Shown: piece by piece, positions 2,066-59,450 of the stretch
Layout of the letters: each line of letters starts with the position of its first letter
Position numbering within the stretch: the stretch's first letter is position 1
Assembly: GCA_973895155.1 (NCBI GenBank)
Contig: OZ316896.1
Coordinates: forward strand, 4,841,925-4,905,924
Direction: 5' to 3'
Source: Marsupella aquatica
Taxonomy: Eukaryota > Plantae > Marchantiophyta
Length of the DNA: 64,000 nucleotides
Position numbers and translations under genes: made by a program
The notes under the pieces: generated by a model
The model's input: only the letters and a program-made list of their open reading frames with translations
What the model was told of the DNA's origin: nothing
The model's database searches: none

Positions 2066-2356
2066 ATCCATCGTTGTCGTTTATTTCGATCCATCCATAT
2101 CCATCCATGTATGTGACTCGCTCGTCTGGTCGGGCCTACTGCACGCTATCTATCAAATCACCAGCCGTACAACCTTAGAGTTAATCTGCTAGATCTGTGT
2201 CGCTCTCCCTCTATTTCAACCTGTCTTGGGCCGGGCTCATCCAATCTAAAATATATCTGACAGCTTTGACCAGAACCATTTATAATCGTTAATTAGTCAG
2301 GTCAGCTGGGCCTCCGGTTAGCCGTGGCTCCGATCCTGGTACGTTAGACATTTTAC

Positions 2357-33544: not shown

Positions 33545-34592
33545 CTAAGAACTGCGATCCATCTTGAGTTCATCATAGCCGAACATGAACTTGGTACCCT
33601 CCCGCGACACAAATTTGTCCTCGTCGGGAACTATCGTCTTCTGATAATCCGGGTCCTGGAAAAAACTGAGGACGGAATCCAGGTCTTCGGCCCAGAACTC
33701 GGCTGCGGCGTCGAACTCCATCACAGGTAACCCATAGCTCACAGCCTTATTCCTTGCTTCCAGGCTGTTGTGATACTGCAAAGAGCATGGCACACGGAGC
33801 AGTCAAGACGGGAGCTGAGCTCACGTTCGGTGAGGGTGATTGTATTGCACTATGGCTATGGCCAACTTGGGCTGAACGGTACAAACATAATTAAATTTGA
33901 GTGCGTGCGGGGAGTAACTATCACTGACGAAGGGAATAGCAAATGCTTTGGATACACATTAGTTAATCTATAGAGATGAAGTGTGCGTCCATTTGGGCTA
34001 AAGTGATCAAATGGCAAACACATAGGAGGAGAATTATTATGTGTCCCTGACACCATGCTTTCAACGAGAAGATCCCGCCCCGCATTCAAGCTATCTATCA
34101 TAGCTAATTGAGGGAACCGACAGAAGCCCCGGCAAACCTCGATCTAAAGTAAGTGGAGATGGATCAAAACCATGATCGAAATACGATTGCAGGGACAGAT
34201 AGTAAGTAAATGACTAAACGTACAATTTTGTTTAGTCCAGGGGGCGAGCTCCAAAAGCAGAGACAAGATAAGGACAGAGAATGCAATATCTTGCGGCATC
34301 GACAGAACAACTGAGGAGCATACAAGTTGAGCCCAACAGGCGAACAGCCCAAATAAACGAACTCCCCTGCGCAAGGAAGAACAGAAGCAACTGCAGGTAA
34401 AGGACGTGGACCAACCTGGTTATACTTGACGAGCTTTTTCTGGACAACTGGAAGGCTTTTAAAGAGGGGCGCATGTTCCTCGGACCAGTACCGGTGGAAC
34501 TCCTCGTCGGAAAGGTCTGATTTCTTCTTGAAAAATACGGTCATCTTCGTGTAACGCTTGCTCTCTTTCGCAGATTCTTCTTGCGACCCCAT
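33545..34592 (-). CDS. EthD-domain protein (dimeric alpha-beta barrel), 2 exons, ~135 aa
   Basis: Exon 1 34592-34416 (MGSQ...FFKKKSDLSDEEFHRYWSEEHAPL...VKYNQ), phase-0 GT-AG intron, exon 2 33775-33545 (YHN...EFDAAAEFWAEDLD...FFQDPDYQKTIVPDEDKFV). These match the EthD family patterns EEFxxYWxxxH and FDxxxExW...DPxY...DExxF. Confidence 0.85.
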
Positions 34593-35587
34593 GATCGATG
34601 ACGTCGATTTTATCACACTTCAATTTCTTGATACCACTCGATGGCTCCTTCGCTGTCCAATGTTCCCCAGGTGACAGTTTCAGTGTGTCAATAAAGTGAT
34701 AACCTTTCGATGCGATGTTTGCGCATTGACCAAATAATTCAGTCCAAATGTACAAACCAATAGTTCCGAGGAGAGCTTCGCGGTGTTTGCGCTTGGAGCA
34801 GACTACTAAGTCCCAAATTAGTACAAAACACAAAATCCAAGGAGGGCTTCGCAGATTATTCAGTCTAAAATTAGTACACACCAAAAATCCGAGACGGATT
34901 ACAAGTGAAGTGAGAAGGACTTCTTCTTACTTCGAATTGTCCGACCGACGGTGGTTAAATCCACACTTGGACACTTTGCACGGTCAAACACAACGATTGG
35001 CTGATCTGCACCGTCCCTTATTAATGCCCTTCCTGATTTGTCGCTTTGGAATTGAGGAATTCACGCGTGATTTTTTGCTTTCTAGTAGAGGAATTCACGG
35101 TAAAGAGTTGAAACTAAAGTTAAGATTGACCACCATGGTTAAGATTGACTGCCATGTTGGACAGATTGCTCCATTATACCACATTTTGGTGGTTCATGTG
35201 AGTTTGTTGGACCATAACTTGATGATGGTGAGTACTCAAATAATTTTTAGGTTTACAGTGCAAGACAACTAGAGAAGTAGTAGAAGGGAAATAAAAATGT
35301 ATTGAACCCTAATATGTGATGAAAAGAAAATGCATTAACCCTTATATGTCATGCAATTAGTTTGTGGACCCCCACCTGTTTTGATTGAGATTGAAAAGTA
35401 GATAGTTATTGATACAAATAAATTATATGTTAAAAAGTATATAGTTATTGATATAGATAAATTTGCTATACAATATTGATATGTGTTGGACAATGGGTAT
35501 CTTTATTGGGACTAGTCAATTGTTTTTGCATGATACACCATAGTGTTCTGAAAAATAAAATTATGTACTACATCATGGAAACAATTG

Positions 35588-36474: not shown

Positions 36475-39400
36475 AATGGGTAAGTGGGAACACTTTGAAG
36501 TCCGGCGGCGTAAGATCTCCAACAATGCGCATGAATGCTCTATTTGTGACCCTACTCAACATAAGGTACACCAGGCCCGGTGTGAATGCACTGTTTATTT
36601 CTAGCACGACCTTGCCCGCTACTGTGCAACCTTGGCTTTTGTACCTGTTATGGCATATCCGAGCATGAGTGGGAAACGGGGTGGGAAAGTGGATTTGCGA
36701 TGGGTTTGCTGTCCCGAGATGAACTTGTTCTCATGAACCGTGCGATTGATCTTTACGAGGCAATGGTTGGAAGACATTCTCACAAAAATTGACATTTTGC
36801 CTTCGGCTTCTATAGTGATTTTCTCCACGATTCCTCCATTGCCGTTCGCGGCTTGCTTGGAGAGGTCAATGTTGTGTGTGAGAATCACCTTGCATCCGAT
36901 TGCAACGTTTGTCAGTGTGTGGAAGGAGGGATCTTCTATCCAAGGTTGGGTGGATTTGTCTGAAGGGGCATTGGTGAGTATTGGGACGGGCACGATCTCT
37001 TGGCGGGGAAAATATCTCTGTAATGCCTGGTCGTTGTACTTGTCAACTGTTTCTCTATGTGTGCATATCACGGTCGTCGAGGCGTCGATGAAATCATAGG
37101 CTTCTTGTTTGGACACGTAACATCGTCCCAGGCATGCATCGATCGATTCTTGGATAGGGAGGCTTGTGCGGATGTTGTTAAGGAACTCCATGAACTCCCG
37201 GTCTGTGCTCTGTCTGAGCACAGTGCTGAGGTGAAATTTCCGCATGGTCTCAAAATATGGTGACGACGAGAGGTGGCACGACCTGCATATGTCGTTGGTG
37301 TGGTGGGTGCAAACTGGAGGCAATTGGCACATGTCTCCGACCAGGATGACCGTCTTATTTTGGAACGGGTCGGATGAGCGGTCCTCGTCTTGGAGTGTCT
37401 CGTGTAGTCTTGTGGAGACGCAACGCAACAATTTGGGTGTCAGCATGCTTGCCTCGTCTATGATGAACACATCATTGTTCCTCAAGATGTGGTATTGGGG
37501 ACTGGTGATGTGCAGAGGCCTGAGCTCTCCGTGTATTGGAATGTTGATTGAACAAGGAATGCATTGTCACCGCGTCGGCGTGAAGGTTTATGGCAGTTGC
37601 GCCCGTGGTGGCACACATCTTCACCTTCTTCCCTTTATATGTCCAGTATTTATTCATGTACAAGATGAAGAAAGTTTTGCCGGATCCCGGATTTCCATTG
37701 ATCATGAACAGATCGCTCTTGACATCCTCGAGGGCCTCAAACACTTTGATTTGGTCCGAAGTCAAGTTGATGGTTGGGAGAGTTTTGTCGTTGAGCACCG
37801 GGCCAATCGGTTCCTCTACGGCGATGGCGGGGACCGCTTGGAATGTGGCCGCGTCATTGAAAATTTGGTGGGGAAGCTTTTCATTCAGTTCTTGTAGCAG
37901 GTGGGATGTGTGGTGGGTGGAGTAGAGGTGCGATGCGCAATACTCAAGCACCAAATTGTGCATGTTGTCAACGTACGCTGGTTATCAACTTGCGGTGTAT
38001 GCACTCGTGCAAGTAGCTCCACGTCTCGCTTATGGGCCTGAGAAGAATTTTGCATTCTACACGGAATCTCACGACCTTCAGGAGGTAGTTGTAGAAGAAA
38101 CCATTCATCTTGTATACTGGATGATACTCCAAAAATTGCACAAGCCGATCTGTCTGATACACAAAATTGCCTTGCAAATCCCTGCCAACGTAGTCTTTGG
38201 TGGTGTTTTTCTTATTGGTTAGGACCTCGTGGTTGGTGAAGTAGTCATAGAAGGACATTGCAAACATGTCCTCGGGCCTCTATGCCTAGAGTCTGGTGGG
38301 ATGCAAACATATCCCCGAGGACTTACGGTAGATGGCGGACCTCAATTCCGGAGGGGACGAGTCCATGAACGCCACTGTCTCCGAGCGATGGATGATGTTG
38401 ATTTTGAGGCACGTCAAGGCCACCTCCGTGGTGCACACGCTTTGAGATAGGATGGCTCCGCTGACAAGCTTGAGTTGGACTTCAGACAAGTCCTCGAGTC
38501 CTAGAGTGCGCGCATCGTTTGCATTAAGCTAGAGTGATCCCAAGGGCTCGCATTTGATCGCATACTTGAGCAAATAGAATGACCAGGCCGCGTTTGTGAC
38601 GCGCTACAGGTTCATGTGCACGCCCCACAACAGCAACACGAGCGGGTGGTATGGCACAACGTTTTGGTGGTGGTCGCTTGGCCTGTGGTACCTCCATTTC
38701 CCCGTGGTGGGGTTGATGGCCGTATCTTTGTTGAGGTAAGTTTCTTGGGGGAAACCCAACTTGTAGTCGTTTGGGAGTGCCTTTGCAAGCACAAGCCCTC
38801 CTTGCAATAGTGAAGTTGTTTCGTCACCACGTTGCGATACATGGTCTTTTCTTCAACTCCATTTGGCTCTTCAAATTTGTCGGATGTCGAGTCAAATTTG
38901 CCAGGGATGAATGCGGCTATTTTGTTTGTGACTTGATCGACATTGCAATCCTTGACCCATAGCACCGTGTGGGCGTGGAGTGATTCGCGGCCCTGCAACT
39001 GATACCTGATGACGTAGTGGATCACATTTCCGATTATGGCACATTTTGACAAAATGTAATCCCTGAAAAAATGTTGAATTTGTTCGTGGAAGAGCATGGC
39101 GCATTCGACAGGACAATCTTGCCATGAGAAGGTTGGATTCATCCTCTTCACGATGTTTTCAAGGTCAGAGATCTCAGGCCAATGGGTGTCGTTGAGCTCG
39201 TATCAATAGTTTCACTAATTCTGGAATATTATTAACGATTTGGAAATTTCATAACAACTTTTTGGAAATTTAAATCAAGTAAATCGTAGATAAATATGAG
39301 ACTTATCAATATCATATTTGAAATTTTTTGATCAAGATATATGAAGCTTAACAAGCTACTCCTAATAAATCTATGTCTAACATACAATGTACTCTAGAAC

Positions 39401-40830
39401 TCAAGTTAGAGGGAAAAGAATAATTGGTGTTGGAAATTTCATGATCAAAAATTGGACAAAAGAATGTCCAGAGTTAGTGAAATCACTGATTCGTTGCAAG
39501 TGAGCGTGAGGAAGAAGTGGGGCAGTCCCCATTTTCTCACCATGCACTTGAGGTCGTCGAGGTGTCTTTCGTGCCACGCCGGGCTCCCAGGAACGGCCTG
39601 CATGATTGTCTTTTTTATTAGCATTTTGTATGTTTCCTTCTCGCTAAAGTGGGGGCACTTCTCCTTGATCTGCATGTATTCCTTGTCAATTACTATCGTC
39701 CTGCTCATGCTTGCTACTTGGCTGGCCTGTCGCAATTGGTACATGATAACCATGTACGGCTTGTACAAAGTGAATATGTTGAACAACTGTTGTGTTCTCC
39801 ATTTCATGTAGTCAATCAAGTTGAGTTGTCCTCGATGGAAACCCCTCAAGTGGACGAACAAGAACGGGAACCTTGCATTTTCCAATATCAATTGTGGATC
39901 GTTCGACAGTCCTTCCGCGTTGGTGTTGATGCTCTCTTCTGAGCATATTCTCTTGCTATCGTACACGGTGCCGGAACGAAAGACCTGGTGGTTGCGCTTG
40001 CGTAAAGTCGGGATCCTATATTGCACATCTTGGAGGATGTGCAGGTTGGGGTCGAATGGGTCAAAGTTCATGGATCTCATGGTGATTCCCTTTGCCCTCT
40101 TGTCTTTGATGATGTTCTCTACTCCGTCGGAACTTAGGATGCACAGTCCCAGTGATGGGTCTGGCAGCTCAACCAATGAACCGTATCTTTTGAAAAGTTG
40201 GTTGGTCGTCAAATTGAGTTCCATGACCTTGTATATCTGTCACATGATCTCCTCTCGATTATTGCACTCTAGCGTGTTGAGATTCCAGGATATGAGCGGG
40301 TTGTCAAGGAGGCTTTCCTTTTTGTAGAAGCCAGAGTGGAAGCCATTGTACTTTGTATGATGCCTAGTTGACAGTTGATTAGCGAGAGAAATTGCATGTA
40401 CAATGGCTTTGCAGCTAGGATGTTGATCGCATATTGCGGAGATATGAAGGTGTTTATCTGGATACGGGCGGGGTTTTGCACACAAGTCACGCACACGTTG
40501 ATTTTTCCATCTCGGTTCTCAATGTATTGGTTGACAAATGCGTTTCATATGTCGTACGGCGTCATGTTCACCTTTGGTACGGTGGTGAATGTCTTGTCGA
40601 GCCTCGGAGTGTTTCCGTATCAAACTAGTCCACACATCCCGCACACCTTCATGCCTTAGACTGTCTTTTGGCAGACGGCTCTCCACTATTGGAGATAAAA
40701 TGGGGCTGAGGCCCATCCTTGACATAACGGACTCAGTGACTTGGCACTGGTGTTTATTGCACGCCTTTGTGCGGCATGTCTCTTCTCGGACATTATACGT
40801 CGTGACATTTTTGGGGAGACCTATATGCAA
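36475..40830 (-). mobile_element. Helitron RepHel (HUH endonuclease + PIF1 helicase), decayed copy A
   Basis: Rep motifs PHFFLTLTCNE..WPEI, YQLQGRESLHAHTVLW (HUH), YLLKYAIK (Y2); helicase motifs GNPGSGKT, FIIDEASML, ILVGDMCQLPPV, VLRQ, FPLMLGYAIT, YLMLSRV. Several frameshifts; termini not resolved. Confidence 0.92.
39202..39490. mobile_element. MITE (289 bp) inserted in the Helitron Rep domain, 4-bp TSD TCGT
   Basis: Imperfect TIRs atcaatagtttcactaattctgga / tccagagttagtgaaatcactgat; tcgt at 39198-39201 and 39491-39494. Excision restores in-frame LTCNE-LNDTHWPEI. Confidence 0.88.
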
Positions 40831-43529
40831 AGGATTATGAACTTGTCAATTTTGTTACCTCACTAGGGTCCATCCAAAATTTGTGCAATGAAACCCCTTG
40901 TCATCAGGTGGTTGCACCTTTGTTGTGGGAGATGGAAGAGATCTACGGGGTTACAAAGGACCCACGATGATACTCTGGTGCAGTTGGTACAATTGATTTG
41001 GATGACTTCATCCAAGAGTTTGATACGTGGTGCAATATGCGGACATTGCGTAATGCCACGTTATTTACCCCTTTCATGGCATGGAAGAGATTATTTCAGC
41101 ATTTGGAGGGGCTACCCATGGATGATTACCATGAGTTTTGGAAGACTCATTTGGTTGAGATTGAGGCATGGAGGCAACATTGGTTGCCTAATTATGTGTC
41201 CATCACTTATGGCACTAGTGCGGCATAACCCTAAGCCAAAGTGGCACACCATCTACTAGTACCACTCTAGTAGCATCCACCGCTACTCCTACTAGTGTGA
41301 TTGTGACAGGGACGGGAGTTGCGCCAACATTGAACCCTGTGGTGGAATTCTTTGAGGTACTAAAGCAGAACTATCAGGGTGTGAGAATTGATAAGTTGAA
41401 GGGTCTCCAGGAGTTGGCAAGACTGGAGAGAGTCTACGTGAGGCATACACTCATATGCACAGATTGATCATTGTCACCAAGGGAGTGACAGAGGCTCAGG
41501 CAGTCCAATTTTGGTATGCAATTCTAGACAGAGAATTGCGACGTAAAGTGAGAGATGTCACTCTACTTAGGGATGCAGATCCCACATTGGCAGTTGTTTT
41601 TACACTTTTTGAGAGCATTGAGTTCATTATGGTGAATGAGAAAGTGGTGACTTCCAAATTTGCCAAGGAAGCACCAAAGGCTGCATCTACACCCACATCA
41701 CAACCTACTGCACGTAAGAGCCAGATGAAGAAGCCCACTGCACAGGAATCTACCAGTCAAAGGCCTATGCCCTCCTATGCTAGACAGCAGTCGGGATGTT
41801 AGACCTATGGTGGGGATCATGCGCAACAATATTGCCTTGATCATAGAGGGTCAAGAGGGGCCTCCGCACCTAATCAGTGGCAGTGTGATAATTGTTGAGC
41901 TCCTAGATACACCAAGGATAGGTGTTTCTCACTCCATCCTGAGTTACAAAGAGGAGGACAGCGCACACATGATTAGGGAAGATGAGGTAAAGATTGTAGT
42001 CATGGCCGAGGTATGCCACATGCAGGGAGATAAGGAGGTGATGTTGCTCCTACTGTGACCATAGGTCCTAAGGACGCTAAGATTGCTCAATTGGAGGAAC
42101 AACTAGTTGCTATGGCTAGTTCTCAGGTGAGACCTACTTCTGGTGATGGGGCTTCTACATCTCATGGACCTTCCACATCTTATGGGGCTGATGGAGACCT
42201 TGTCACCATGGGATTCATGTGTGGCACTGCGCATATTGATGCATCAACAACTTTGACACTTGGGATAGCCAAAACTTTGAGCCCCAAGGAGCAGTAGTGG
42301 AGCTAGATCCACAGAGGGGGGATGCACGTTGTCAGAAAAAGTTCCTCAGTCTTTTACATTGTCAGAGACAGTTCAGACTCCCTCTATGAACCCAATTTGG
42401 ACAAACCCTTGTCTGGGTAAGTTGGCAGAATCACAGGATGTTGCAGTAGGGATGATATGTACCTTGTTGGGGATGACTACCACCATAGTGCGCACCCCAC
42501 TATTTTAAGCGACAGATATGCTGACATTGGGGGTTGGTCCAGTTGATGTGTTCAGATTAGCAGCCACATTATGCGAGGATACTCCAGTTTTGGCTTCCCA
42601 TGCAGAGGCAGCATGCAGTTGTGGAGTAGGAGAGTTGACACCACCTACTGCTACTAGTGAGACATGGCATGCAGCATCAACAAAGTTGATGGATTTTCCA
42701 GCACACCGTGCATTTGAGAGGACTAGGTTTAAACCTAGCGTTGTGTCATTGGATAATCGGGGTGGTATCTTCCGATTAGTTGGGCCTATTGGAGCAGTAT
42801 ACCAGCCAAAGAGAGTGTTACTAGATACTGGTGCCCAGCCTTTGATGTTGGTAAGTCTGCAGTACAAGGATTGGGATTGCATCCAGATGATCTGGAGGAG
42901 TGTCCCTTTCCTATTCAGACTTCATTGGGGAGACCTACACCCACACATCACATCACCAGACGACCACTTGACTTGCGGATTCAAGAGGGTCATGCAAAGG
43001 ATAGCTCTCACATACAGACGAGCTATTTTGACTAAGGTAGAGTCCTATGATGTGTTGGTGGGATGTACAGTGCTGTACCCCATGGGATTTATTCTTGATT
43101 TTTGGGATGAATCAGTTTCATATCGGCCTGATTAGCAATCTGGAGATGCTAGATTGAGCAGATTGCGAGTGCAATTTAGTGGACCTGTGGGGGGCCCTAA
43201 ACCTGCACCACTGTCTGTGGCAGCATTTAGTGATGTGATCACTGATCCTGATGATTTGATTGAGGGCAATGCACATGCAGCAGATTTTCCAAGAGTGGAG
43301 CAGTACGTCACTTGAGGAGCAGGTCATGTATGGGTTACCTGTTGGTAGTGTTGTACCACCAGTGTGGGGCACTAGCCAGGCCTTGCCACAAGCAACAGCA
43401 CAATTGGTATATGATGCGTGGCGTCATGGTTTTACACCACAGCCAGGAGCAGAGCGATCTCCTATAGGTGGGTCGGTGACTCTTTCACCATTGGATACCA
43501 CTCCCATTGCATGGCAGTATCCACTAGAG

Positions 43530-44480
43530 GGTATTTGTTTGTTGGATTTATTTGATGGGATTAGCACTGGATTGGCTGCTATTCTTCAGGCATGAATTCC
43601 AGTGCGTCGTTACTTATATGTGGAGACAGATGAGATAGCATGGAGAGTCTCATTGCGCCATGTGGCTATGTTGGTCAATTGTTATCCATAGTTATTGTGA
43701 GTGGATGTTGTTTGTGGCTATCAACATGCACTGCTTGCTGATATTGTATTGTTGGGGGCGAATCATTTGGATCGCGTTGGTCCTATTGATTTGGTGATTG
43801 GTGATTGGCCATGTCAGGGCCAATCTAGAGTTGGCGTTGGACATGGACTTCATGACCCACGATCTGCATTGTTTTAGGAGATGTTACGGGTGTTGCGTCA
43901 TCTCCAGTTGCATCAAACACAGTCTCCAACCTACATTTAGGAGAATGTGCCACTCTTGGGTAATCATTGTTAGCAATTATTGTTAGTGTTCATCAGGTGG
44001 GGTCTTGTATTGGACCTGTTGTGTTATTGGATGCTGCACGCGTGGGTTCTCGTGCACATTGTCCACACTTGTGGTGGACTAATTTGTTACCAGGTGAGGT
44101 TTTGAAGCGAGCATTTGACAACATTCCTTGCTTGCTAGCCTTGGTAGTGGATGATATTTTAAATCCAGGGCGTCATTCACAGGGTGTGACCCAGCCTCAC
44201 TAATCTCCATTGGCCATAGTCAATGTGGTTGGGCGCCCACGTTGTGCATTACCCACCTTTGTGAGCCATTTTGCTTCATATGCTTTCAGCGCATGTGGTC
44301 ATAGACTTGTGTGGAATGCGTCGGCTCTCCGACAGTTAGTAGAGCCCACTACAGATGAGAGAGAGCGGGTCATGGGATTCTCCACAGGTACAACTGCTGT
44401 TGCATCTGTGTCAGAGAGTTCACACCGCCAAGTCCTTGGCCAAGCCATGGATTTGAATTGTTTGACTTGGATTGTCAGCT
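43530..44480 (+). pseudogene. C5 cytosine DNA methyltransferase domain within the retroelement pol region
   Basis: Reading through stops in the frame of ORF 43260: motif I CLLDLFDGISTG, II YLYVETDE, IV IDLVIGDWPCQGQS (PCQ at 43809-43817), V DPRSALF, VI YI*ENVP (43941-43949). After a frameshift: VIII LDAARVGSRAH(C)P(H)LWWTNL, IX EPTTDERERVMGF, X RQVLGQAMD. Confidence 0.92.
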
Positions 44481-46196
44481 TGGGAGTAGTAGAGCAGTAT
44501 TGGATGCGCTCTGCTGGTGTTACCAATCTTCCATTGGTGAGCTTGCAACATACTGAGATAGTAGTGGCCACAACTGGGGGCGAACAGACAGTCCATGGAC
44601 CTCTAGCAGGATTGGCCAAGGCTGGACAGATTGTTGAGCAAGAAGGGACTGCTCAAACTATTGTTAAATAGCAATCATCGGCTATCTCTTCTACCCTACA
44701 AAAAGATATTAGGGATTTGGTGGAGAGTTGGGAGCCACAGATTGGTCCTAAGTTAACAAGGGAGGAAAGACGTCGCATGCATGTGCCTTCCTTTGTTGGG
44801 TTCCAACATGCATTCGATCTATGGACTCTACTTCATTGGATGAAGTAGATGATGAGTCTACCGATATGGATGCTGATGAGGTTGTGGTTGGACAACAGGA
44901 TATTCACAACAATGAGAGAGTGTTGAAATACCTGCTCACTGGTTCTATTGGTGGCAGTGTTGATGCCAAGGAGCGTGACATGGTTCTCCAAAGAGCCAAG
45001 AGGTTTCAATGGGAAGGAAATCATCTTTTGAGAGAACTACATGATGGTAAGGTATTGGTGGTACCAAAACCATCACAACAAGTACATTTGGTGCGACATG
45101 CGCACGAGGAGTTGGGTGACTTTGGTCTGAAGTGCACTTATAGCTTGTTGCAGACATAGTATTGGTGGCGTGGTATGCACACTCACGTCCAACAATTGAT
45201 AGCTAAGTGTGTGGTATGTACGTGATCGAGTGAGAGCATCCTTCAATGCTCCCACTTCCCAATTGCATCCATTGTCGATCATGGGTTTGGGGTACAGATG
45301 GAGTTTGGACTTTGCTGGTCCATTACCTCTTACCCAAAGACATAATCGGTATGTTTTGGTTATGATGGAGCACTTCTCCAAATGGATTGAGCTAGTAGCG
45401 TTGCCAGATAAAGCTAGTGGAGGAGTTGCTACCATATTTTTGGACCGTGTACTCAGTCATTTTGGGACACCAACTGAGGTGTTGATTGATCAGGGAGCTG
45501 AGTCCCATGGAGAGTTTGAGATTTTGTGCGAGCAAGCTCTGATTGATCATCGTACTACTTCTCATGACCATTCTGAGGCAGATGGATTGGCTGAGAGAGT
45601 AGTGCAAACTATGAAGAGAGGATTGCGCAAGTATGGCTTGTAGGTTGGTCATCTGGGAGATTGGGATCTCCAGTTACCTTGGTTAGCTATGGGCTATCGT
45701 TTCAGTCGGCAAGCATCACTTGCATCCTTCTCACCTTATTTCTTGCTCTATGGTAGAGAGCCAAATTTGCCAGCAGCTATTCGTCGTGATACTGCATCGA
45801 TTGTGAACTTGGATAATCCCAATGTTTGGGTCAAGGTTTGTTCAAAGAGGGCAAGGATTTTTGAGAGAGTCATGCCCATGGCCTTTGCAAACCTTGCCAT
45901 TGCCCAACATCGTGATACTTTGCGGTATGCCACTATTTGTGGAGGAGGTTATTGTGCGAGGATTCAACGATTTCATCCTAGTGATTATGTCGGGGATTAT
46001 GTTTATTTGCAGAAGACATCACCAACTACACTTGATGTGACCGCGGGTCAAAAGTGCTGCCTTCTGGTGTCTGGTGTTGGAATGGCGTGATGGTATGGTT
46101 TGGAAGGATCATGTGCGCAGCTGTGCACCATGTCATCTTCCAAACATTGATGGTACAGTGGATCCAAGCTTAGCACATGTTTGTGCTGGTTTGAAG

Positions 46197-46340
46197 TGTA
46201 TGTTGTGTGAATCTGCTCAAGGAGCAGCTACTCATATGTTTATTTGTGATAAGTATTCTAGAGGATGGCACATGTTGTGTTTGACACCACCATTGCAGGT
46301 GATTCCTAGTGGATCATGGTTGTGTCCTCAGTGTCGGTGA
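46197..46340 (+). other. PHD finger at the C-terminus of the retroelement integrase
   Basis: CMLC-x11-CDK(Y)-x3-WHMLC-LTPPLQVIPSGSW-LCPQC follows the C4HC3 PHD pattern, with one Cys>Tyr substitution (tgt>tat). Confidence 0.88.
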
Positions 46341-46514
46341 ATCCAACTAGTTATCAGTTGTGTTCTCTTGGAAGATATGGATTGCAGGTAGGTGATCGAT
46401 GGGGCTTACTTGCACCCGACCTCCTGATCTTCACACCTAAAAAGATGTATATCAACCTTGTAGATCTCATGGCTAGCTAGAGTTAGGGGACCTTACTCCT
46501 AGCTAGGGGGCGAT

Positions 46515-47121
46515 TGTGGATTTTGAACATGTGTGGACATGAGTTCCACTTGTATTCCCTTCTCTTGTGTTTGTGATGTGGCAGTGTGACTATGTCTGGA
46601 TGTATGTGACAAGTGATGTATGTTATGTAGCAATGTGTATGCGCACGACAATTGTCACACCATTCTAGGTAGTGGTAGAGTGTATTGTCCTATCTAGATT
46701 TGTATGTTTGGTATGTGTGCTATATGAGCCGATAAGGTTCCGTTAGGTTCGTGTGAGAGGGTAGTTCTCTCTTGTGAGACATTGAAAGGTTATCTTTCAA
46801 TGTTGAGCCTTGGAGAGGGGAGCTTGTGTGGTGGCTATGGTGGCTGAGACTCTCTCTATGTAGCATGGATTCCTTGAGTGCAAGGTGCGTTGGCTCGACA
46901 TACATGACTGTGTGATCGGATCAGACGGGATTGAGTGCGTATTGTTGGCATTGATCGTTGTTTGGATTCTATTGGGATTATTGTGGGTTTTGGACATGTG
47001 TGGACATGAGTTCCACTTGTATTCCATTCTCTTGTGTTTGTGATGTGGCAGTGTGACTATATATGTCTAGATGTATGTGACAAGCGATGTATGTTGTGTA
47101 GCAATGTGTATGCGCACGACA
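46515..47121 (+). repeat. Putative 3' LTR (TG...CA) built from two ~136-140 bp direct repeats (46515-46650, 46982-47121)
   Basis: Both copies read tgtgg.ttttg.acatgtgtggacatgagttccacttgtattcc...tgtgtatgcgcacgaca. A PPT-like tract precedes the first copy and Helitron sequence follows the second directly. Confidence 0.7.
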
Positions 47122-47937
47122 AATACTCAAAAACCAACTTGTGTATGTTGTCAACATTGGTTATCAACTTGCAGAGTATGCACTCATGCAAGTAACTCCA
47201 CATGTCGCTTATGGGCCTAAGGAGAATTTTGCCTTGTACACGGAATCTCACAACCTTCAAGAGGTAGTTGTAGAAGAAGTTGTTCATCTTGTATACTGGG
47301 TGATACTCCAAGACTCTCATGATCGAGTCGATCCGTCCAATACACAAAGTTGCCTTGCAGGTCCTAGCCAACATAGTCTTTGCTAGTGTTTTTCTTATTG
47401 GTTAGGACCTTGTGGTTTGTAAAGCAGTCATTAAAGGACATTGCAAACATTGCCTTGGGTGGTTGTGCATAGAATCTGGTGGGGATGCAAACATATCCCC
47501 AAGGACTTACGATAGATGGCGGACCTCAATTCCGGAAGCAAAGAGTCCATGAATGCAACTATCTCTGAGTGATGGATGATGTTGATTTTGAGGCATGTTA
47601 AGGCCGTCTTTGTGGCGCACGTGCTGCAAGACAGCACGGCTCAGTCTGCTAACCAGCTTGAGCTGGACTTCAAACAAGCCTTCGAGTCCTAGAGTGCGTG
47701 CATTGTTTGCATTTAGTTGGAGTGATCCCAGGGGCTTGCATTTGATGGCACACTTGAGCAAATAGAATAACCAGGTTGCGTTTGTCACGCGCTGCAAGTT
47801 CATGTGCGCGCCCCACAACAACAACACGAGCAGATGGTATGGCATGGCCTTTTGGTGGTGGTTGCTTGGTCTGTGGTACCTCCATTTCCCCGTGGTGGGA
47901 TCAATGGCGCCATCTTTGTTGAGGTAAGTGTCTTGGG
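47122..47937 (-). mobile_element. Helitron RepHel fragment, copy B
   Basis: Colinear same-orientation homology to 37939-38749 (EYHPVYKMN.FFYNYLLKVVRFRV; LLLWG.HMNLQRVTNA). Confidence 0.9.
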
Positions 47938-49077
47938 TGTTAGCATCATTCTTCCGAGTGGCTTTTGCTTCGACCCACTTAGTGGCATAATCAGTAGCAA
48001 GTATTATATACTTACTAAGGCTCTTACGTGCAGCTGGTGAGATAGGGCCAATAAAGTCTATGCCCCATTTTTCAAAGATAGCTAATTAAAGGTAAAATAG
48101 GAGTGAGAGGCCACTTAGAAGATGATGTTGGCTTCCCTACTCGGTGGCAAGGATCACATGACTGAATAAATTGGTAAGTATCTTTGTGCATTGTGGGCCA
48201 CCAGTAGCTTGCTACAAGAATTTTTCTAAAAGTGGAATTCATTGCCTAATGGCCTCCAGTTTCACTTGAGTGTAAGGATTCAATGACATGTGAATTTCCC
48301 TTGCTTCTTAATTTCTGATCAGGGTCTTGTTTAAACAAGGTACCTTTAATAATGGTGTAAGGTCCCACCTTATGCGAAGGACAGCCCGCTCTTCAGCATT
48401 AAGACCTTGTGGGAATACCCCATGAAGCAGCATTTGCACTATCTCAAAATACTTGGAAGATTCGCCCTCGATGCACCATAAATGCTCATCTGGAAACTCG
48501 TCTGATAGGTTGTGTTCATTTTCTTCCCCTAGCAGTCTTAACAAGAAGTTAGCATTTTCATGGTGTTTCCCAGGGCGGACATGCACTTCATAATCAAATT
48601 CCTGAAGTAGGAGTACCCATCTTGCTACTCTCCCCAAAAGATCAACTTGGTTAACCAAATATTTTAAAGAGTTGTGGTCAGTATGGAATATAATCTGGTA
48701 ACCCAGGAGATAATGGCAGAATTTATTACAGGCAAACACAATGGCGAAGGCCTCTTGTCAGTGACAGGATAATTCTTTTTTGCTGCACTCATTTGCCTAC
48801 TAGCATAGTAAATGGGGTGGTACATCACGATTATCCTTTTCCTTTTGACTTAAATTAGCGCCTAGCAAAAGGCAGAGGAATCAATAAAGATATGTAACTT
48901 TTTACTCTAGTGAGGAGGTGAAAGAATGAGATCAATTATAAGTCTATCTTTCAATGTTTGAAATGCATGTTATCTCTCCTCACTCCATTCATAATTAAGG
49001 TTCATCTTGCTTCAGCAATTTGGTTAAAGGCAAAGCAACCGAGAAAGCAACATCAGCATGCTTGTAAATAAAGCGGC

Positions 49078-50990
49078 TGTGATGGGGCCAATGCCCCCAA
49101 AGAATGATTTTAAGGGGTATTAGTGACGTGCAAATGTAAATAGGTAGATTTGTGTCATGTTTTTTCTGCTTTTGTTCTTTTACAACTTGCCAATGGGTTG
49201 GTTGGTTTTTATGTCCTCTTAATTTTAGTTGTTGGCCAAGCTTCAGGAAAAGAGGAGGTTGGCCACTGGCCGGTGCAAGACAAGGCATGTACCCTAATGC
49301 CCTCCCATGGTGGAGTTGGGGGATTGCCTCTCTTTTTATTTTATAAGCGGCCTTGGTATTAAAATAATGATGCCCCGGGTCAAAATGTGTGAGTGGCCAA
49401 ACACCACTTTGACCCTGGCCAGGAAGAGATAGGGAGCAGGAGCTTTGGAGTGGGCCAGACACAAAAGTATTAAAAAATACTAAATTTTAAAGAGCCTTGG
49501 CCGTTTGGGGACCCCGGCCAGGAGTATCCTTGCACTTGGGGGAGGACCTAAAAGAGCCCTGGCCACCGGAGGGCAAGCCCAAGGAGACCCCGGCGAGGAG
49601 GACAATGAGGGTTCCTGTGGCCAATCCGTAGATGAGCATCTTACTACAAGCAAGCAGTCAGATGAAGGTTAGTACGTGAGCCGTACGGACCTTGGCCACA
49701 GAAAAGTCAACTTTCAATCTTCTCAAAATCAAGAACTTCTATGCTTATTGGAAGGAGCTCGCCAAACTGAATCCAACAAGGTAAGACACGCCCCAAACAG
49801 AGTTAAAATGAGGAAGATACGGACCAGAGGGTTTTGGCAAAAAGTTGGGGTCCGACGCTGTACAGACATCCGTACATCATTCAGGTGAGTGACCCCGGCC
49901 AAATCTTGGCATGCAGCCTTGGCCAGGGTACCTCCTATGATTTCTTGATGGGAGGCCAGGGCCGTACAGACAACCGGGAAGTGATGGTGGTCGAGGTAGA
50001 ACTTGAGACTCGGTAAGCCATATCTCGAGCATCTAATGTCCGTTTTGGGATCTGTTTTCGGGGTTATGATCAAGATGGCAATGGCTATCCAAAAACATTC
50101 TCAGGACCAGATTTCGAGCAACTTCTGCTTTTGACAATTCTCATGGTCAGGGTAGTGGGAGGTGGAGGCAACCACGTAGTAGGAAGGCAGACCATGGCCT
50201 ATATCGGCCTTAGTCTAGTTTTTTCTTAGTTGATGTGGTGGCCGACAAAGGCACCGTTGGCCGTCTATGGGTAGCAATAGGGTTAGGAGTGCATATGTGT
50301 GTCGAATGCGTAGGAAGCTTTTAGGTTAGTAGCGCCGCTAGTGGATTGTGGCCAGCCAAGGCAGTGGCCGCCGCCACACCCCCCTAGGGCTTGTGCGCTC
50401 ATGCATTGTTTTCATGGTATTTAAATAGCAGCCCCTGGTAGGAGCAAGGGGGAACTCAATCTAGTGTTTTTGTTTTGAGGATTAGCCTTCAACAAGAGTA
50501 GGGAATTCATCTAGAGTAGTGAGATGGAGAGGCGCTCATTGTCCCGTGAGACAGGAGTTGGACAGACAACAGGAGACCGGGTTAATTGCCCATGCAATGT
50601 GTTACATTGGCCACCAACAGATATAGATTCGGTTGGATTCTCATAAATTATTGTGTGGTGTTCTCTCTCTTTGTTGCACGATTGTGTTCTCCCCCTAGCA
50701 TGAATGTTTAGAGAAATTTACATGGTTTGGTCGACCCTGTGAGTGGGAGAGTGGTGACAGCACTTTGCCAAAGGCTAGGAGGAGTAGGAACAAGGTAGTC
50801 CACAGGACTTGATCAAAAGCGGAGTACACGTATAGTCAGTACACGTACATTTTCGAGAGCAAAAACAAATCTACTCATCCTTAGTAGGAAATTAATCCAT
50901 ATAGCGTCCCCGCCGTATGATACAAATAATTCTTAGTGGAAACCAAACGGTATTTGTTGTGTTAATCATTTGATATATAAGCAGGTGACA
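49078..50990. mobile_element. Solo-LTR-like insertion (~1.9 kb) inside the RT of the Athila-like element
   Basis: Termini tgtgat...gtgaca; degenerate 5-bp TSD gcggc / acggg. Removal restores GYY-RRFIYKHAD in the RT. Non-coding, with a TATA-like tatttaaata at ~50418. Confidence 0.78.
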
Positions 50991-53900
50991 ACGGGGATAG
51001 TACCCAACATGCCCTAGGAAGGCACAAAGTTTCTTCAAATCTGTAGGGGGTCACACTTCCACAATCATCTGAACCTTCTCCTTATCCACCTCAATACCAC
51101 GTTGGGAAATTACATGATCGAGAAAAATGCCCTCCTTCGTGCCAATAAAGCACTTCTTTGGGTGTAAACACAACTGAGCCTCTCTACACTTCTAGAAAGT
51201 CTTCTCAAGGTGCATCAAATGGTTAGCAGCTAATCCAAATACGGAGAAATCATCTATGAAAATCTCCATAAAATGCCTCGAGTACTCTTGAAAAATGATC
51301 ATCATGATCCGTTGGAAAGTTCCCAGAGCATTACATAGGCCAAACGGCATCATGGTGAATGCATAAGTTCCCCAGTTGGTAGTGAAGGTAGTTTTTTCTT
51401 GGTCCTCCTTACGGAAACCTGATTATAACCAGAGTAGCCATCCAGAAAACTATATAATTCATGCAAGGCGACAAGATTGAGCACCAGATCAATAAATGGT
51501 AAGGTTTCTCAACATTGGATAGATAAACCTAGCAGCTGTCAATTTGTCTAATTCCTCCTTCACAAGTACATAATACTTTGGGTTCAAGCGGTATTGCCGT
51601 TGTCTGACAGGAACCGTGCCTTCCATTAAATCAATTTGTTGTTGTCCCAAATGAGGGTGGATGCCCTTCAGATCCGAGTGGCTCCAGGCAAATACATCCT
51701 TATACTGAGTTAACAATTTAACATCTAATTCCTTCAACTCTCCTTGGATATGCTTACCTATGTTGAGAAATTTGTCGGGTTCAATCCCAATATTTTGACA
51801 TGCCTTGGGATCTAATATAGCATCAGTGAGATTGAGGGTGTGAGCTCCCACTTGCCCACGTCTGGCTCCGTATTGTCCTGGGAATCTAGCCACTGCCCTT
51901 TTACAATGGGTGTTGATTGGACTGCATGCAACCAAGGGCACTCCTTGTAGACTGGACAACGTCCTTCCCAAACTTAATTGTCAAGAGGCATCCACAGGTT
52001 CAATTTCCGTCTCCTTCCTAGCTTCGGACAGATAAATCTCTAAGTAGTGTACCTCTTCCAGCTCAAACTCCATAGGCTCTAGAATCAAATCAGAATTGGA
52101 AAAATCTGATCTATAACCATCATCAGTTTGAGTCTCACCTTTATGTGCATCAATAGCCCAACTCACTACTACTTTGGGCTTACCAAAGGTCATCTCTTGA
52201 TTTCTCCAATTCACCTGTACTTGAGCTTTATACAACCAAGGTCGTCCTAGCAAGACTGGAAAACTCAACGGTAATTCTGGACTTATCACCACATACTCCA
52301 ATGTAAACAGAACACCAGAAATTAGGGTCTCAACCTTACTTAACTTTCCTGCTGGAACAACTCGAGATTGGTCAGCCATGCGTAGGATCTTTGGTGTGGG
52401 CTCAAACTTAGTAAACCCAAGATTGAATGTTGTTTGCTGAGTCATGAGATTAATGTTGGACCCACCATCCACTGGTACTTTCCTCACAACGCATCCTTGA
52501 ATCTGTACATCAAGTTTTGGCGGTCCTTTATCTTCCTATTCCAAGCGTAATACATCCACTTCAAGTAATTTCCGTTGCCTTCTCTTCCCGGCCAACAACC
52601 CTCTTAATTGCCTTCTATACACAGGATTGTCCTGGAGGAACTCACCAATGATGATCTGAGCCGGATGATTCTTCACATCCTCCACAATATCATACCCATG
52701 TGGTTTAGAAACTCACTGATCTGGCTCCTTCTCGACAGGCTTTTGTACAAAGTTTGGTTTGTGAGTCTTTTCCTTTGTCTTTTTCTCCTCCCTTGCTTAG
52801 AGCGAGTGATGGCATATATGTTAGTCAAAACTTTATCCCGGTCCTGCACTCTGGCGTTTGGCAAGCCCACTACTTCTGGTTTCACCAATTGTCCTACCAA
52901 CACATCAGGTACTACACTTGCAAGAGGATGGTTAAATATAGAATCTTCCTTCACCTCCACCCTATTTACCTCTATATGTTGCAGGAGCCCACAATGCTCC
53001 ATCTCTTCTGTGTACACCATGCGCACCTTGGCTTTTGGTCTACTAACCTCCTTGACAGGCTCTTGAGCAAAAGGTACCATCATCTTTGGCTTAGGTGGAT
53101 TTGGACATGCAATAGGTAAGTGGCCTTCCTTCCCACAATTCCCACAGATAGGTGTATATCCCTCCTCCCGCTTAGGATAAGGACATTGAGGTGAATAGTG
53201 ATCTGGTTGACCGCAATTCCAACAGGATCCTTTTTGTCATGGAGCTCCTCTAGGGGGGTACTCTCTTGGGGATCCCATAAGTGGCCTTGGTACTGGTCTG
53301 CTAAAGGCAGGCTTAGGTACGTGGTGCCCAATTAGTCATAGGCACAGGGGCAAGTGGAAAGTACTGATCTCCTAGTGTTGCCTGTACCGCATAAGTAGGC
53401 TCATACTCATACTCTTCCACCTCGTCTTATCCTTCCAAATAATTCACTGTCTGCATCCGCCAGGTTGGACATTCATGTGCGTAGTGTCCTTGTTGGTTAC
53501 ATCGAGTAGTACACCATACATTCATTCTCATGGAGGGTGGTAATTTCCGTACAGGCTTAACTCTAGAAATATTAACATTTAGCTTGGTCAACTGTCCAGT
53601 GATCTCTTTCATCGTGCGATCCATTTTCTTCTGATTGGGGTTCTTAGGTATTACCTTAGGTGGTGCCTTCTTCTTCTTTGGGGTAGTCTTCTCAGAATCT
53701 GAACTTGTACTTGAGCTCTCGCTGGTACTAGTGTCCATGCTCTTGTCCTCTTCACTCATGGTGGTATCAGTATCGTCCTCCTCGGAATCATATTTAGACG
53801 TAGACTTTTTCTTCTTTCTCTCTTTATTTTTCTTTAAATCTTCCTTCACTCGTTCCTTTTCTGAAATTTTTGAATCAACATACTTATGGGCTGCTCCCTG

Positions 53901-55265
53901 AACCTCCTCCAAAGTGGTACCTCCTTCATGCCTTATGTACCGGGAAATTCGAGATGGCAATCCGTTGATGAACCAGTCCTTCATAATGGACTTAGAGGTG
54001 GCTGGATTATATTGGTCCACCAAATCCAACAACTTATCCACATATTTCCTTACAGAATCATGCTTCTTCATGTGCAAATGAGAAATCCAAGCAAAGGCTC
54101 AAAGCAGCGGATCCTTCCTCCTTGTACTTAGCCAAAAGGCAGCTTTCAACTTTCCCCAATCATTCTTATCTGGAAAGCGGTCATACCATTTTTGAGCTCT
54201 CTTTTTCATCAATCCGTCGAATAGATTGGCCTTTTTTGCATCTTGACTTTGTCCATTTGAAGCTGCAGCAACTTCAAATTCCTTTAGATAAACTTCCGCA
54301 TCCTCCCTATATGACCCAAAGAATCTATTGTATCTCACATTATTTTGAGCCATTATAGTGGCACTCAAGTTAGGAATTGGTAAGGCTGATCGAGTGGCAA
54401 ATGGGTTTATCCAAGTTTGAGGACGTAATACACTGGAGCTACTAGATTTTGCACCACTTTTTGAACTCTTTTTACTTGTAGACGAGCCCTCCGATGAATT
54501 GAATCTCATTAAGTCTTGAAGTTCTAGAATTGGAGTTTGTTCCTTGGAAGCTGTGGTGGTAAAGGGTCTACTAGCTGTAGGCTTTTCCAAAGTTCCCCAA
54601 GATAATCCTTCTTGAATTGAGGTCACCTTCCTTGTCACACTTCCCGTAGGAGGAAATTCTTGCGATTGGAATTTGGAAAGTAAGTCTCAAGGCTCCACTG
54701 CCTTGCTTGAGTCTTCTGATCTATGAGAGGTTTTCTTCCACTTCTTTTCGGGCTTCTTTTCTATTAGGCAAACTTTCTCCAACATACCTCATTCTCCACA
54801 ATGCTAGAACCTAGAAAGATAGGAGGCTCGCTCTGTCAGCAAATTCAGAGGTCATCAAATTATTTGGGTCCCTCTATCCATAACCACATCTAATAATGCA
54901 ATACCCTCAATTACAACATATAATTCAAAATCCCCCTCCATCATGAGTCTCCCAAATTCCTACAATCTTATTATGGTGCAAAAATCTCAGAATTTAAGAG
55001 TTGTCCTTCAAATTCTTAGAGTTCCCTCAAACCCTCTTTGTCGCTCCTCCATGAGCAAGATCCTTTCTCGGGAAACCATCTTTCTGGGCAACTTGATTCA
55101 ACATCGCCTGTAGGGCTTTAGGAGCATTGTCTATGATGAGCTGTTGTACTTCCAACACCAATTCACTCCAAAAATCTGATGTAGACATACTTCAAAGATG
55201 ATTCCTTTTACTTCTCAATTTTTAGCATTCACTGCCTAAACATCAATCTTAAGTCATCAATTTGT

Positions 55266-57155: not shown

Positions 57156-57232
57156 TCTTTTGCTTCAAAAAGTTAGAAAAAGATTGCAAATATGCTCCAA
57201 TTAATGAATTTTGACGAAAATGCCTATCCACA

Positions 57233-59450
57233 TAGGAACCATAGAGGGGGTTCTAAGCACCTCAAACAACAAGAATGATTGGGGAAGCCTAGCTTGCCTC
57301 CCAGCCTCACCTCTCTATATATGGATCCAACTCCACAATAACACCACGGGGCTCTGAAGCTTGAGCTGCACCTCTTGTCACTGCAGTTGATGCCTCCACT
57401 TGTGCTGCACTCTCCATATAAGAGAGATCATCCCCTCCATAAGATGTGGAAGCCCCTGTTCCCGAACCTGCCCGGTGGTGACTACCAACCATAGTAGCAA
57501 GTCTCTACTCCAACTACTCAATCTTAGCAGCCATAGCTGCCTCTGTAGTAGGGGGAGGGGCAGCCACCGTGGGCTCTCCAACTACTGGTGCACCTCTACC
57601 ACCTTGACCACCTCGACCTCGTGGAGCTGGTCCACCACAACCTCTACCTGATCTCAACTATGGGTAAAGGTCAAAACAACACTCCCGAGGATGACCTGCT
57701 CACCCGCAATGATCACACTGAGTTTGGGCCAACTGAGATCCATCCTAAAAAGTCTGTCCCCCATTCTCCTTATGGAAAACCCTCCTATGATGATCACCAC
57801 CACATGTCCAACATGACAGCCCTTGCTGCGGGGCAGCGAATGAAGGCAATGGTCTTTGCGCAACTGTCCCTCTAGGACCTGACTGAAGTTGTGCCTGACC
57901 TCCACAACTCCCACTATTACTACCGCCACCACTATTATGAGGTTGTGAGGTGGACTGATGAACCCCAGACATAGTGGCTGTATCCTTGCTGAATGCAGGT
58001 GTCACCACTCTCTCCTCCACCATGTTAAGCTCAATCTTATCAGACAAAGCAAACACATGGGCCAATGTGGGGGGTTCATCACTCATGAGAGTAGCATCAC
58101 GTACCCTTCGCTACAACTCTCTATCCAAAATCACATACCAAAGTTGAATTGCCTGAGCCTCAATCACACCCTTGGTAACTGAAATCACCCTTCGCATATG
58201 AGTGTATGCCTCACAAAGACTCTCACCAGTAGTCTTCCTCTCAATGCAAACTCCTGAAGACTCCTCAACTTCTCCATCTTCACCCCCTTGTAGTTCTTCT
58301 TCAACCTCTTGAAGAACTCCGTAACTGGATTGAACAAAGGTGGGGCACTAATATCTATACTGGTGGTGCCACTCTGACTGATACTCCCACTAATTGATGT
58401 CAAAATATTCAGCTAACACGGTAGAAGCACTACTACTAGTACCACCATGAGTGATAGACACATGGGTTGGAGACCAATGTGGTCTGCATGCCTCAATCTC
58501 AATAACGTGGTCCTTTCAAAACTCATTGTAATCATCCATGGCCCGAGGTCCCTCTAAGTGCTGAAACAACCCCTTCCATGCCAAGAAGGGTGTGAACAAC
58601 GTAGCATTAAGCAACATCTGCATATCGCATCACGTGTCAAATTCCTGAATGAAATCCTCCAACTCAATGGTACCACTACACCCGAGTAACGTCGTGTGCC
58701 CTTCATGGCCCCGTACATCCCATCCATGTCCCAAATCAATGGGGCCGCTACACTAGATAGTGACACAAAAGACTTGGTGTCTGGAACACCCTCGTCCTCC
58801 TCCTCATCAACCAACGGTAACGGAAAAGGTAGTTGATACCTCAATCCACTCTGTGTAAAACCACTAGTGTCCGCACCTAGGTCCCAATAGGACCACCAAA
58901 CTGCTCCGTGATGACAAACCGCAACAGCACCACCACCAAATCACCACCACTGAGTAACCAAGTAATGTCAATGTTGTTGTACTACTCTAGCCCTACCAGC
59001 TATGGGTGTAGGCAACCTAACCTGTCATCACCACAAGAAGCCTCCCACAGTCTACTGGTCATCACTCCAGTCTCATCGTGAGAGAAACATAGGTAGTTTG
59101 ACTAGTCATCACTCCAGTCTCACTACCGGCAGCACACAAGAGTAAAACTACTCCAAAAATCAGTGTCAGCCGGCAAACAATGGCCGCACAAGCAAGAAGC
59201 AACAATGGAGGGGATCCAATCACAAGAAGTCCAACAACAACCCTCAACCCGCAAATGAAACTACAAAATGGAAATCAAGGCAACACAATCCACCAAACGT
59301 GGTGCCCCCTGAATCCACAAAACAAACCACACAATCCTAATGCAATGGTGGCTACTCTGCTGGTAGTCTATGATGTGCTCATTGCACTCATAGCACCTGA
59401 TAATGTCACTTGCATGGAAACGTTATACATCACCATCTTCTAGGAATCCG
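57233..59450 (-). mobile_element. Second, diverged copy (5' leader + gag) of the DNMT-retroelement lineage, interrupted by the Athila-like LTR
   Basis: The reverse strand parallels 40880-42390: WDMDGMYGAMK..RRYSG, FNPVTEFFKRLKKNYKGVKMEKLRSLQEF, PTLAHVFALSDKIELNMVEERVVT, CWTCGGDH knuckle, GASTSYG..VELDP. Homology stops at the TG start of the Athila-like LTR. The upstream boundary is approximate. Confidence 0.8.

Follow-up and report, generated by a model that had tools for sequence, protein, structure and literature searches.

The window, a stretch of 64,000 nucleotides from the liverwort Marsupella aquatica (contig OZ316896.1, positions 4,841,925 to 4,905,924), carries, among host exons and other mobile elements, the remains of a Ty3/Gypsy-type retroelement in which a cytosine methyltransferase (DNMT) domain stands between the protease and the integrase. 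The parts of this element and a related remnant are the following.

40932..42288, + strand: gag region with a zinc-knuckle-like C-terminal part, broken by stops and by shifts near 41220 and 41420
42758..43126, + strand: retropepsin-like protease with the motif RVLLDTGAQP, located by tblastn with the Marchantia protease segment
43527..44479, + strand: DNMT3-like C5 cytosine methyltransferase domain (PF00145) with 6 stops, one frameshift and a degraded motif VIII
44669..44677, + strand: stop codon TAG that ends ORF1, with CAATCA behind it (a CARYYA read-through context); the RT start is in the same frame
44723..44800, + strand: first ORF2 residues (WEPQIGPKL...ERRR), then the deletion breakpoint
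44951..45949, + strand: integrase, broken, with H2C2 zinc domain (PF17921, E 1.3e-7) and rve core (PF00665, E 3.6e-10)
46197..46334, + strand: PHD finger 3' of the integrase (PF00628, E 1.6e-8)
46501..46512, + strand: PPT-like purine-rich tract directly 5' of repeat B1, recognized from the sequence
46513..46651, + strand: repeat B1, ending in ...GCACGACA, 93% identical to B2
46649..46656, + strand: internal CA-AT-TG(TC) junction, where the right-end motif abuts the left-end motif
46653..46979, + strand: putative repeat A2, starting with TGTC and containing a TATA-like box, placed by its position and by comparison with A-coding-B-A-B loci
46980..47121, + strand: repeat B2, with the element terminus CA at 47120-47121; contigs diverge 3' of 47121
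57231..58727, - strand: gag-only remnant of a second, related subfamily, cut before the protease, with 68% DNA identity to the first gag

The C5-methyltransferase motifs reported in an initial annotation are all present where it had placed them, in canonical, non-permuted order, and the N-terminal half of the domain, translated with X at the stops, matches PF00145 above the cut-off (E 1.9e-6, 28 bits, cut-off 22); the C-terminal half on its own gave no match in the Pfam search. The domain is intronless, as had also been noted, with a retropepsin-like protease on its 5' side and an integrase followed by a PHD finger on its 3' side. It was further said to continue the frame of the protease, which does not hold for the window copy: the protease frame (42509-43312) is separated by a shift near 43305 from the frame of the DNMT N-terminal half, and the C-terminal half follows a second frameshift near 43965-43975. 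In-frame stops occur at 43593, 43689, 43698, 43875, 43938 and 44201, and motif VIII reads AHCPHL, with the loss of both arginines, which are kept in 98% of 214 homologues. The gag region is 43-73% identical to that of the Marchantia protein P0005 over three frames (tblastn), and in the relative P0001 the Asp_protease_2 match is below the cut-off. The RT and RNase H are absent through a deletion of ~1.46 kb near 44780 (relative to loci L022 and L065), the sequence jumping from the first ORF2 residues to the post-RNase H linker, and the 5' end has been lost against a Helitron. On account of the six stops, the frameshifts, the lost motif-VIII arginines, the deleted RT-RNase H and the missing 5' end, the window copy is, judged by its sequence, dead and unable to encode an active enzyme.

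The host genes had been taken for those of a land plant, and the one gene compared, a RUS-family exon, agrees: its identity is 88% with Calypogeia fissa, as against 66% with Marchantia, 60-62% with Riccia and 57% with Ceratodon (7 matches among 384 candidates), which points to a leafy liverwort. A search with the DNMT N-terminal half recovered 20 homologues among 215 candidates (52-70%), 14 of them named Marchantia polymorpha. The window domain is 77% identical to P0001, 64% to Marchantia P0005 and 32% to P0094 of Klebsormidium nitens (GAQ93235.1, with the order CCHC-protease-DNMT), which is a direct homologue. A Marchantia cluster of 18 includes uninterrupted gag-PR-DNMT proteins of 1278-1281 aa, and two gene models fuse the DNMT with RT-RH. 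A profile search (82 matches, 7983 scored candidates) added Sphagnum fallax (gene model P0284), Chromochloris, Haematococcus, Chlamydomonas eustigma and Cymbomonas; further named hosts are Scenedesmus, Hariotina, Closterium and Klebsormidium nitens. When 1.84 billion representatives were scanned, 269 matched at E up to 1e-30, and the best 150 of the 269 were inspected. Among viral contigs, 1 weak partial match was obtained from 79 candidates, and the ESM Atlas search returned generic C5-MTase clusters only.

Metagenomes contributed 66 loci from 151 candidates, which are Sphagnum-like by tree, and many of them carry gag-PR-DNMT-RT-RH-IN-PHD in order. In addition, contigs from 4 public runs (5363, 11637, 2993 and 5057, figures that do not represent a copy number) span all 30 bins of the element, and the thousands of contig variants over all these bins indicate a multicopy family. 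The DNMT is hence a trait of the family, found in Marchantia, Sphagnum fallax and the 66 metagenome loci, and the suggestion that a DNMT-bearing retrotransposon lineage exists in embryophytes has been borne out, for a Ty3/Gypsy lineage, by Marchantia and Sphagnum fallax. It could be argued that a host DNMT was captured once, or that nested insertion or misassembly produced a chimera, as Helitron pieces border the copy and its RT-RH is missing. However, the same order and spacing recur in the Marchantia proteins and in dozens of independent loci, and the contigs of the four runs span the whole element; refuted by the Marchantia proteins and the metagenome loci, this alternative retains a practically negligible probability. 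Members of the family are laid out as A-[gag-PR-DNMT]-stop-CAA-[RT-RH-IN-PHD]-PPT-B-A-B; they have TG...CA termini and are flanked by target duplications of 4 bp.

Intact copies were expected to carry PR-DNMT-RT-RH-IN in one ORF. This is not the case in bryophytes, where the DNMT is the last domain of ORF1 and a conserved stop follows it; single-ORF forms are known among other relatives (P0035, P0289 and P0296). All 34 metagenome loci that span the junction have a stop 17 codons 5' of the RT start, followed by CAA (22 TAG and 12 TAA, several of the 34 loci being the same insertion), and this stop is in frame with the DNMT in 27 of them. The ORF1 proteins of Marchantia and other relatives, as read from the proteins, end at the matching place. 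In the window, the boundary is TAG-CAA-TCA at 44669, which is the full CARYYA context, a context that follows 10 of the 3012 stop triplets on the + strand of the window. Tobacco mosaic virus and SIRE1 are precedents for read-through of this type. According to the sections of PMC3441728 drawn on here, the CARYYA context is important for read-through, and there are retroelements that likewise have two in-frame ORFs joined by a stop with CAR-YYA, in which, however, the stop comes after gag, whereas in the window family it comes after the protease and the DNMT. The moss-like copies have the context CAA-CCC-ATG, in which CAA is kept and YYA is not, with an ATG two codons 3' of the stop; since this is not a full CARYYA context, their ORF2 could also come from re-initiation or splicing. 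A stimulatory stem 3' of the stop is unsupported in the window (z -0.71) and weak in the moss-like loci (z -0.1 to -2.5, n=8). The conserved stop-CAA between gag-PR-DNMT and RT-RH-IN-PHD suggests that the DNMT, with the protease, is likely made at Gag levels, and that RT-IN would be made at a low read-through rate.

The motifs had been likened to those of DNMT3/DRM-type or bacterial enzymes lacking the DRM permutation. The DNMT3 type and the non-permuted order stand, but the DRM-type and bacterial readings were dropped after ranking against PDB and by Foldseek. Among PDB sequences, the best match of the family profile is DNMT3A (E 2.6e-26), ahead of DRM-type enzymes at 9e-16 and HhaI at about 1e-9, and the match to DNMT3A is collinear from motif I to X. 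The top Foldseek matches of the predicted structure of the relative P0002 (pLDDT 91.5) are DNMT3A/B (DNMT3A, E 3.1e-19). The catalytic Cys, Glu and both Arg are retained in 203 of 214 domains, and all four are present in just 6 of the 10 Marchantia rows.

At every depth compared, the DNMT is better conserved than the protease or gag. For example, the identities to Marchantia P0005 in DNMT and protease, respectively, are 74 and 55% for P0001, 70 and 57% for P0175, 52 and 46% for P0247, and 36 and 27% for Klebsormidium. Between the window and 49 de-duplicated moss-like copies, the median dN is 0.32 and dS about 1.5, giving a ratio of about 0.2; the selection criterion of the KnitGypsy-Dnmt3 type is a DNMT Ka/Ks < 0.2. 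Among the moss-like copies, which are mostly decayed (stops in 36 of the 38 near-full ones), the median dN/dS is 0.60 for the DNMT versus 0.33 for the RT, and for their common variants 0.48 versus 0.07. By these sequence measures, the constraint on the DNMT is real and weaker than that on the RT. CpG depletion was rejected as a sign of self-methylation, because the neighbouring Gypsy element without a DNMT match is equally depleted (CpG o/e 0.41, versus 0.35 for the element), so the depletion is not specific to the element.

Taken together, we give a probability of about 0.6 to the reading that the element in the window is a dead member, with an internal deletion, of a bryophyte Ty3/Gypsy-type family whose ORF1 ends in a DNMT3-like domain that is likely made at Gag level and is predicted to methylate CG on the element's own new cDNA. 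Most ribosomes would stop after the DNMT, and few would read through into RT-IN. Consequently abundant in the particle, the DNMT would be packaged with Gag, released by the protease and able to methylate CG sites on newly made cDNA, and new copies would integrate pre-methylated, which would either silence them or let them pass for host heterochromatin. The PHD finger may read target chromatin and guide the integrase.

It is conceivable, albeit unlikely, that the DNMT sets no 5mC on cDNA and has been retained because it binds nucleic acids or modifies RNA or hybrids, or that there is little need for it. Activity is spoken against by the domain of KnitGypsy in K. nitens, which gave no methylation in yeast, a result called inconclusive by its authors (sections of PMC5890265), and by a CpG depletion that matches that of the neighbouring Gypsy element; the DNMT constraint below that of the RT in the moss-like family points the same way. 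On the other hand, the Cys, Glu and Arg-Arg are retained across green plants in nearly all of the domains counted above, a confident DNMT3A-like fold is predicted for P0002, and the DNMT3 of another retrotransposon class, SymbioDIRS-Dnmt3, methylates CG de novo in yeast, as described in the same sections of PMC5890265. Rather improbable is a third option, in which the nucleus would be the enzyme's place of action and integrated copies or the target site its substrate, giving a self-restraint that benefits the host. An enzyme encoded in the abundant ORF1 could indeed work in trans, and self-limitation is among the options raised by de Mendoza et al. (PMC5890265, in the sections used). However, its fusion to Gag behind the protease would suggest packaging, and the chlorophyte DNMT, which lies between RNase H and integrase, is again placed in the particle's enzyme set.

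Since 2018 it has been asked how a retrotransposon would benefit from a cytosine methyltransferase of its own, and the question has persisted partly because the known hosts are difficult to handle genetically. In Marchantia polymorpha, a model for which methylation mutants exist, uninterrupted ORFs of the family have been annotated as hypothetical genes, which makes the question directly testable.

The element was initially called an LTR retrotransposon. It is of the Ty3/Gypsy type, but not a plain LTR element, as its 3' end is a split B-A-B repeat and a blastn search of the window at E up to 1 gave no 5' repeat (A1). The window keeps the 3' half of the layout, that is, the PPT-like tract, B1, CA-AT-TG, A2 and B2. 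A near-identical PPT-like tract lies 5' of B1 in the five metagenome loci compared, and unlike flanks follow beyond 47121 in 27 (X1) and 38 (X2) contigs, with an agreement of 0.36-0.37. The complete A-coding-B-A-B form occurs in 5 of the 66 loci (L022, L037, L040, L041 and L050, representing 4 insertions), with the copies of A 86-91% and those of B 88-94% alike. B-A-B is present in 8 loci, and the B|A junction is CA-NN-TG (or TA), with a 2-nt spacer, in 8 of 8. The elements start with TGTCATG and finish with CACGACA, and among the 10 relatives with both ends, to which this comparison is confined, the 4-bp TSD is exact in 7 and agrees at 3/4 positions in 2, and 1 locus is truncated. Five other loci show A-coding-B with a TSD, possibly by assembly collapse, because L025 and L052 share the 3' flank and differ in the number of B.

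In the five loci checked, there is no TGG within 10 nt after A1 that could mark a tRNA primer site, and no self-priming site was found after A1, the longest complement being 6-9 nt. The 10 nt after A1 (CTCAAAGAAC) are repeated exactly inside A, 3' of the TATA-like box, in 2 of 5 loci (L041, at 6153-6162 and 6337-6346, and L049). Among the hallmarks of a canonical LTR element, the TG...CA ends, the TSD (4-6 bp in such elements), the PPT and the DDE integrase are therefore present, and neither two full-length LTRs nor a tRNA primer site next to a 5' LTR were seen. A DIRS/Ngaro (tyrosine-recombinase) identity was ruled out by the rve integrase and the 4-bp TSDs.

How an element that has an integrase and TSDs together with DIRS-like repeats would replicate is a problem in itself. 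A more speculative scheme, to which we give somewhat less than even odds, derives A-coding-B-A-B from a circle: ordinary strand transfers would yield B-A-coding-B-A DNA, the ends of which would be joined, and the integrase would then open the circle at the CA-NN-TG B|A junction. This is the simplest scheme, in that it accounts for both observed forms and for the TSDs; A-B-A-coding-B, which it also predicts, was seen in none of the 20 loci that have sufficient upstream DNA. Because the repeats are split, finders that require twin LTRs would likely miss such elements, and this may be behind their absence from plant LTR catalogues.

The position of the DNMT divides the homologues. The largest group, 84 RT-RH-DNMT-IN proteins (cluster mates included), has only chlorophytes among its named members and carries the DNMT 3' of RNase H; the other, with streptophytes as its named members, carries it between protease and RT. 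In the chlorophyte Gypsy polyproteins P0073, P0131, P0240, P0274, P0279 and P0225, a DNMT3-like domain separates RNase H from integrase, followed in most of them by a PHD finger; no description of such RNase H-DNMT-integrase polyproteins was found in the literature. The relative P0038 has a Tudor-like domain (PF21743) 3' of the PHD finger. In the RT-RH tree (84 rows) and the integrase tree (112 rows), the 11 rows with the DNMT before the RT lie on one side of a branch (support 100 and 99, respectively), and the 214-row DNMT tree (FastTree) gives the same split at 0.998, with K. nitens on the side of the window. In a 55-row DNMT subset (IQ-TREE), that split, the grouping with Klebsormidium, is weak at 81/9, and the bryophyte clade that holds the window has 100/100. 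The trees are without a host DNMT3 outgroup, a DNMT-less outgroup and a named K. nitens RT or IN.

These patterns could reflect one ancient, DNMT3-carrying, PHD-tipped Gypsy lineage that extends across the green plants, its DNMT placed 3' of RNase H in chlorophytes and 5' of the RT in streptophytes. Surviving in liverworts and peat moss, it would supply its particles with methyltransferase at Gag level by way of a leaky stop and integrate a circular cDNA that a DDE integrase opens at CA-NN-TG, in a manner intermediate between LTR and DIRS elements; as a whole, we regard this picture as tentative and on balance doubtful. The bryophyte elements may instead have spread recently between liverwort and moss by horizontal transfer, and not by descent from algal ancestors, which is likewise a possibility well short of probable. 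The Marchantia and Sphagnum-like copies group at 100/100 with the copy of the window, a liverwort, outside, and the DNMTs of Marchantia and the moss-like P0010 are 71% identical, above the 57% of the liverwort/moss host exon. Physcomitrium and Ceratodon are without a named match in the N-half homologue search and the profile search. However, the window holds a second subfamily with a gag nearer to the Marchantia type (53%, versus about 46% for the first gag), so old paralogous lineages can account for the tree, and the order of Klebsormidium, Closterium and bryophytes matches that of their hosts, partly with weak support. Horizontal transfer concerns the history of the family and is compatible with the reading of the window copy preferred above.

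The window family is, by its close resemblance, a land-plant variant of KnitGypsy-Dnmt3 and not a new kind of element; what sets it apart from the published description is the land-plant hosts, including a leafy liverwort, the stop-separated ORF1 and the green-plant-wide range. As described in sections of PMC5890265, KnitGypsy-Dnmt3 is a Gypsy-type element of Klebsormidium nitens that shares the intronless, non-permuted DNMT3-like domain and has the same DIRS-like A-coding-B-A-B repeats. The Gypsy order PR, RT, RH, IN is also common to the family, RT-RH being deleted in the window copy. However, the DNMT of KnitGypsy-Dnmt3 lies inside the Pol ORF, whereas that of bryophytes ends ORF1, so that one polyprotein is made only with read-through, and these sections mention neither 4-bp TSDs nor a CA-NN-TG junction, both of which occur in the bryophyte family. 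The acquisition is there ascribed to the K. nitens lineage alone, in contrast to the homologues found here, which range over streptophytes and chlorophytes; the table of the 96-genome survey, as given there, includes Physcomitrella and Selaginella and has no Marchantia entry. SymbioDIRS-Dnmt3 of Symbiodinium (PMC5890265, same sections) shares the DNMT3-type domain and the A-coding-B-A-B repeats but uses a tyrosine recombinase, in contrast to the DDE integrase and 4-bp TSDs of the window family. The EpiLTRs of Cymbomonas and Euglena, in the part of bioRxiv 10.64898/2026.05.21.726589 drawn on, are likewise LTR elements with a cytosine DNMT and a chromatin reader; their DNMT, however, is sister to DNMT4 and comes with DAM and a chromodomain, and the authors set them apart from streptophyte Gypsy-DNMT3.

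The literature searched, with figures, Repbase, REXdb, subscription papers and bioRxiv supplements outside its scope, describes DNMT-bearing members from algae only and none from land plants. The 'streptophytes' of PMC12344493 and of the above preprint, which come from one group, may already include land plants, to go by the portions used. In the portion of the plant LTR survey of Neumann 2019 (PMC6317226) that was covered, methyltransferase, PHD and Marchantia have 0 occurrences, and the same holds for methyltransferase in that of PMC9985172. PHD-bearing Gypsy elements are described in PMC9940879, where the portion covered leaves DNMT unmentioned, and Troyka (PMC12440569), from the portion covered, is unrelated.

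Other features lie around the retroelement. To its left is a Helitron element with Rep/PIF1 helicase (36619-40239, - strand), and its right flank is a Helitron piece of 820 bp (47122-47937) that is 84% identical to the left-hand one, an identity which indicates that the two flanks are different Helitron copies. Adjoining this piece is a second, unrelated and decayed Gypsy-type element (47940-54700, - strand) with gag, CCHC, protease, RT, RNase H and an integrase piece, in which no DNMT match was found. A decayed LINE-type element with RT and zf-RVT matches lies at 59782-62359 (- strand). The exon at 34164-34619 (- strand) has an EthD domain (PF07110, E 9.8e-6), a family found mainly in fungi and bacteria, and a gene transfer into liverworts is possible. 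Finally, nested inverted repeats with arms of 40-74 nt (80-95%) at 1273-3143, just 5' of an NTF2/G3BP-like exon, are likely a foldback or MITE-type element.
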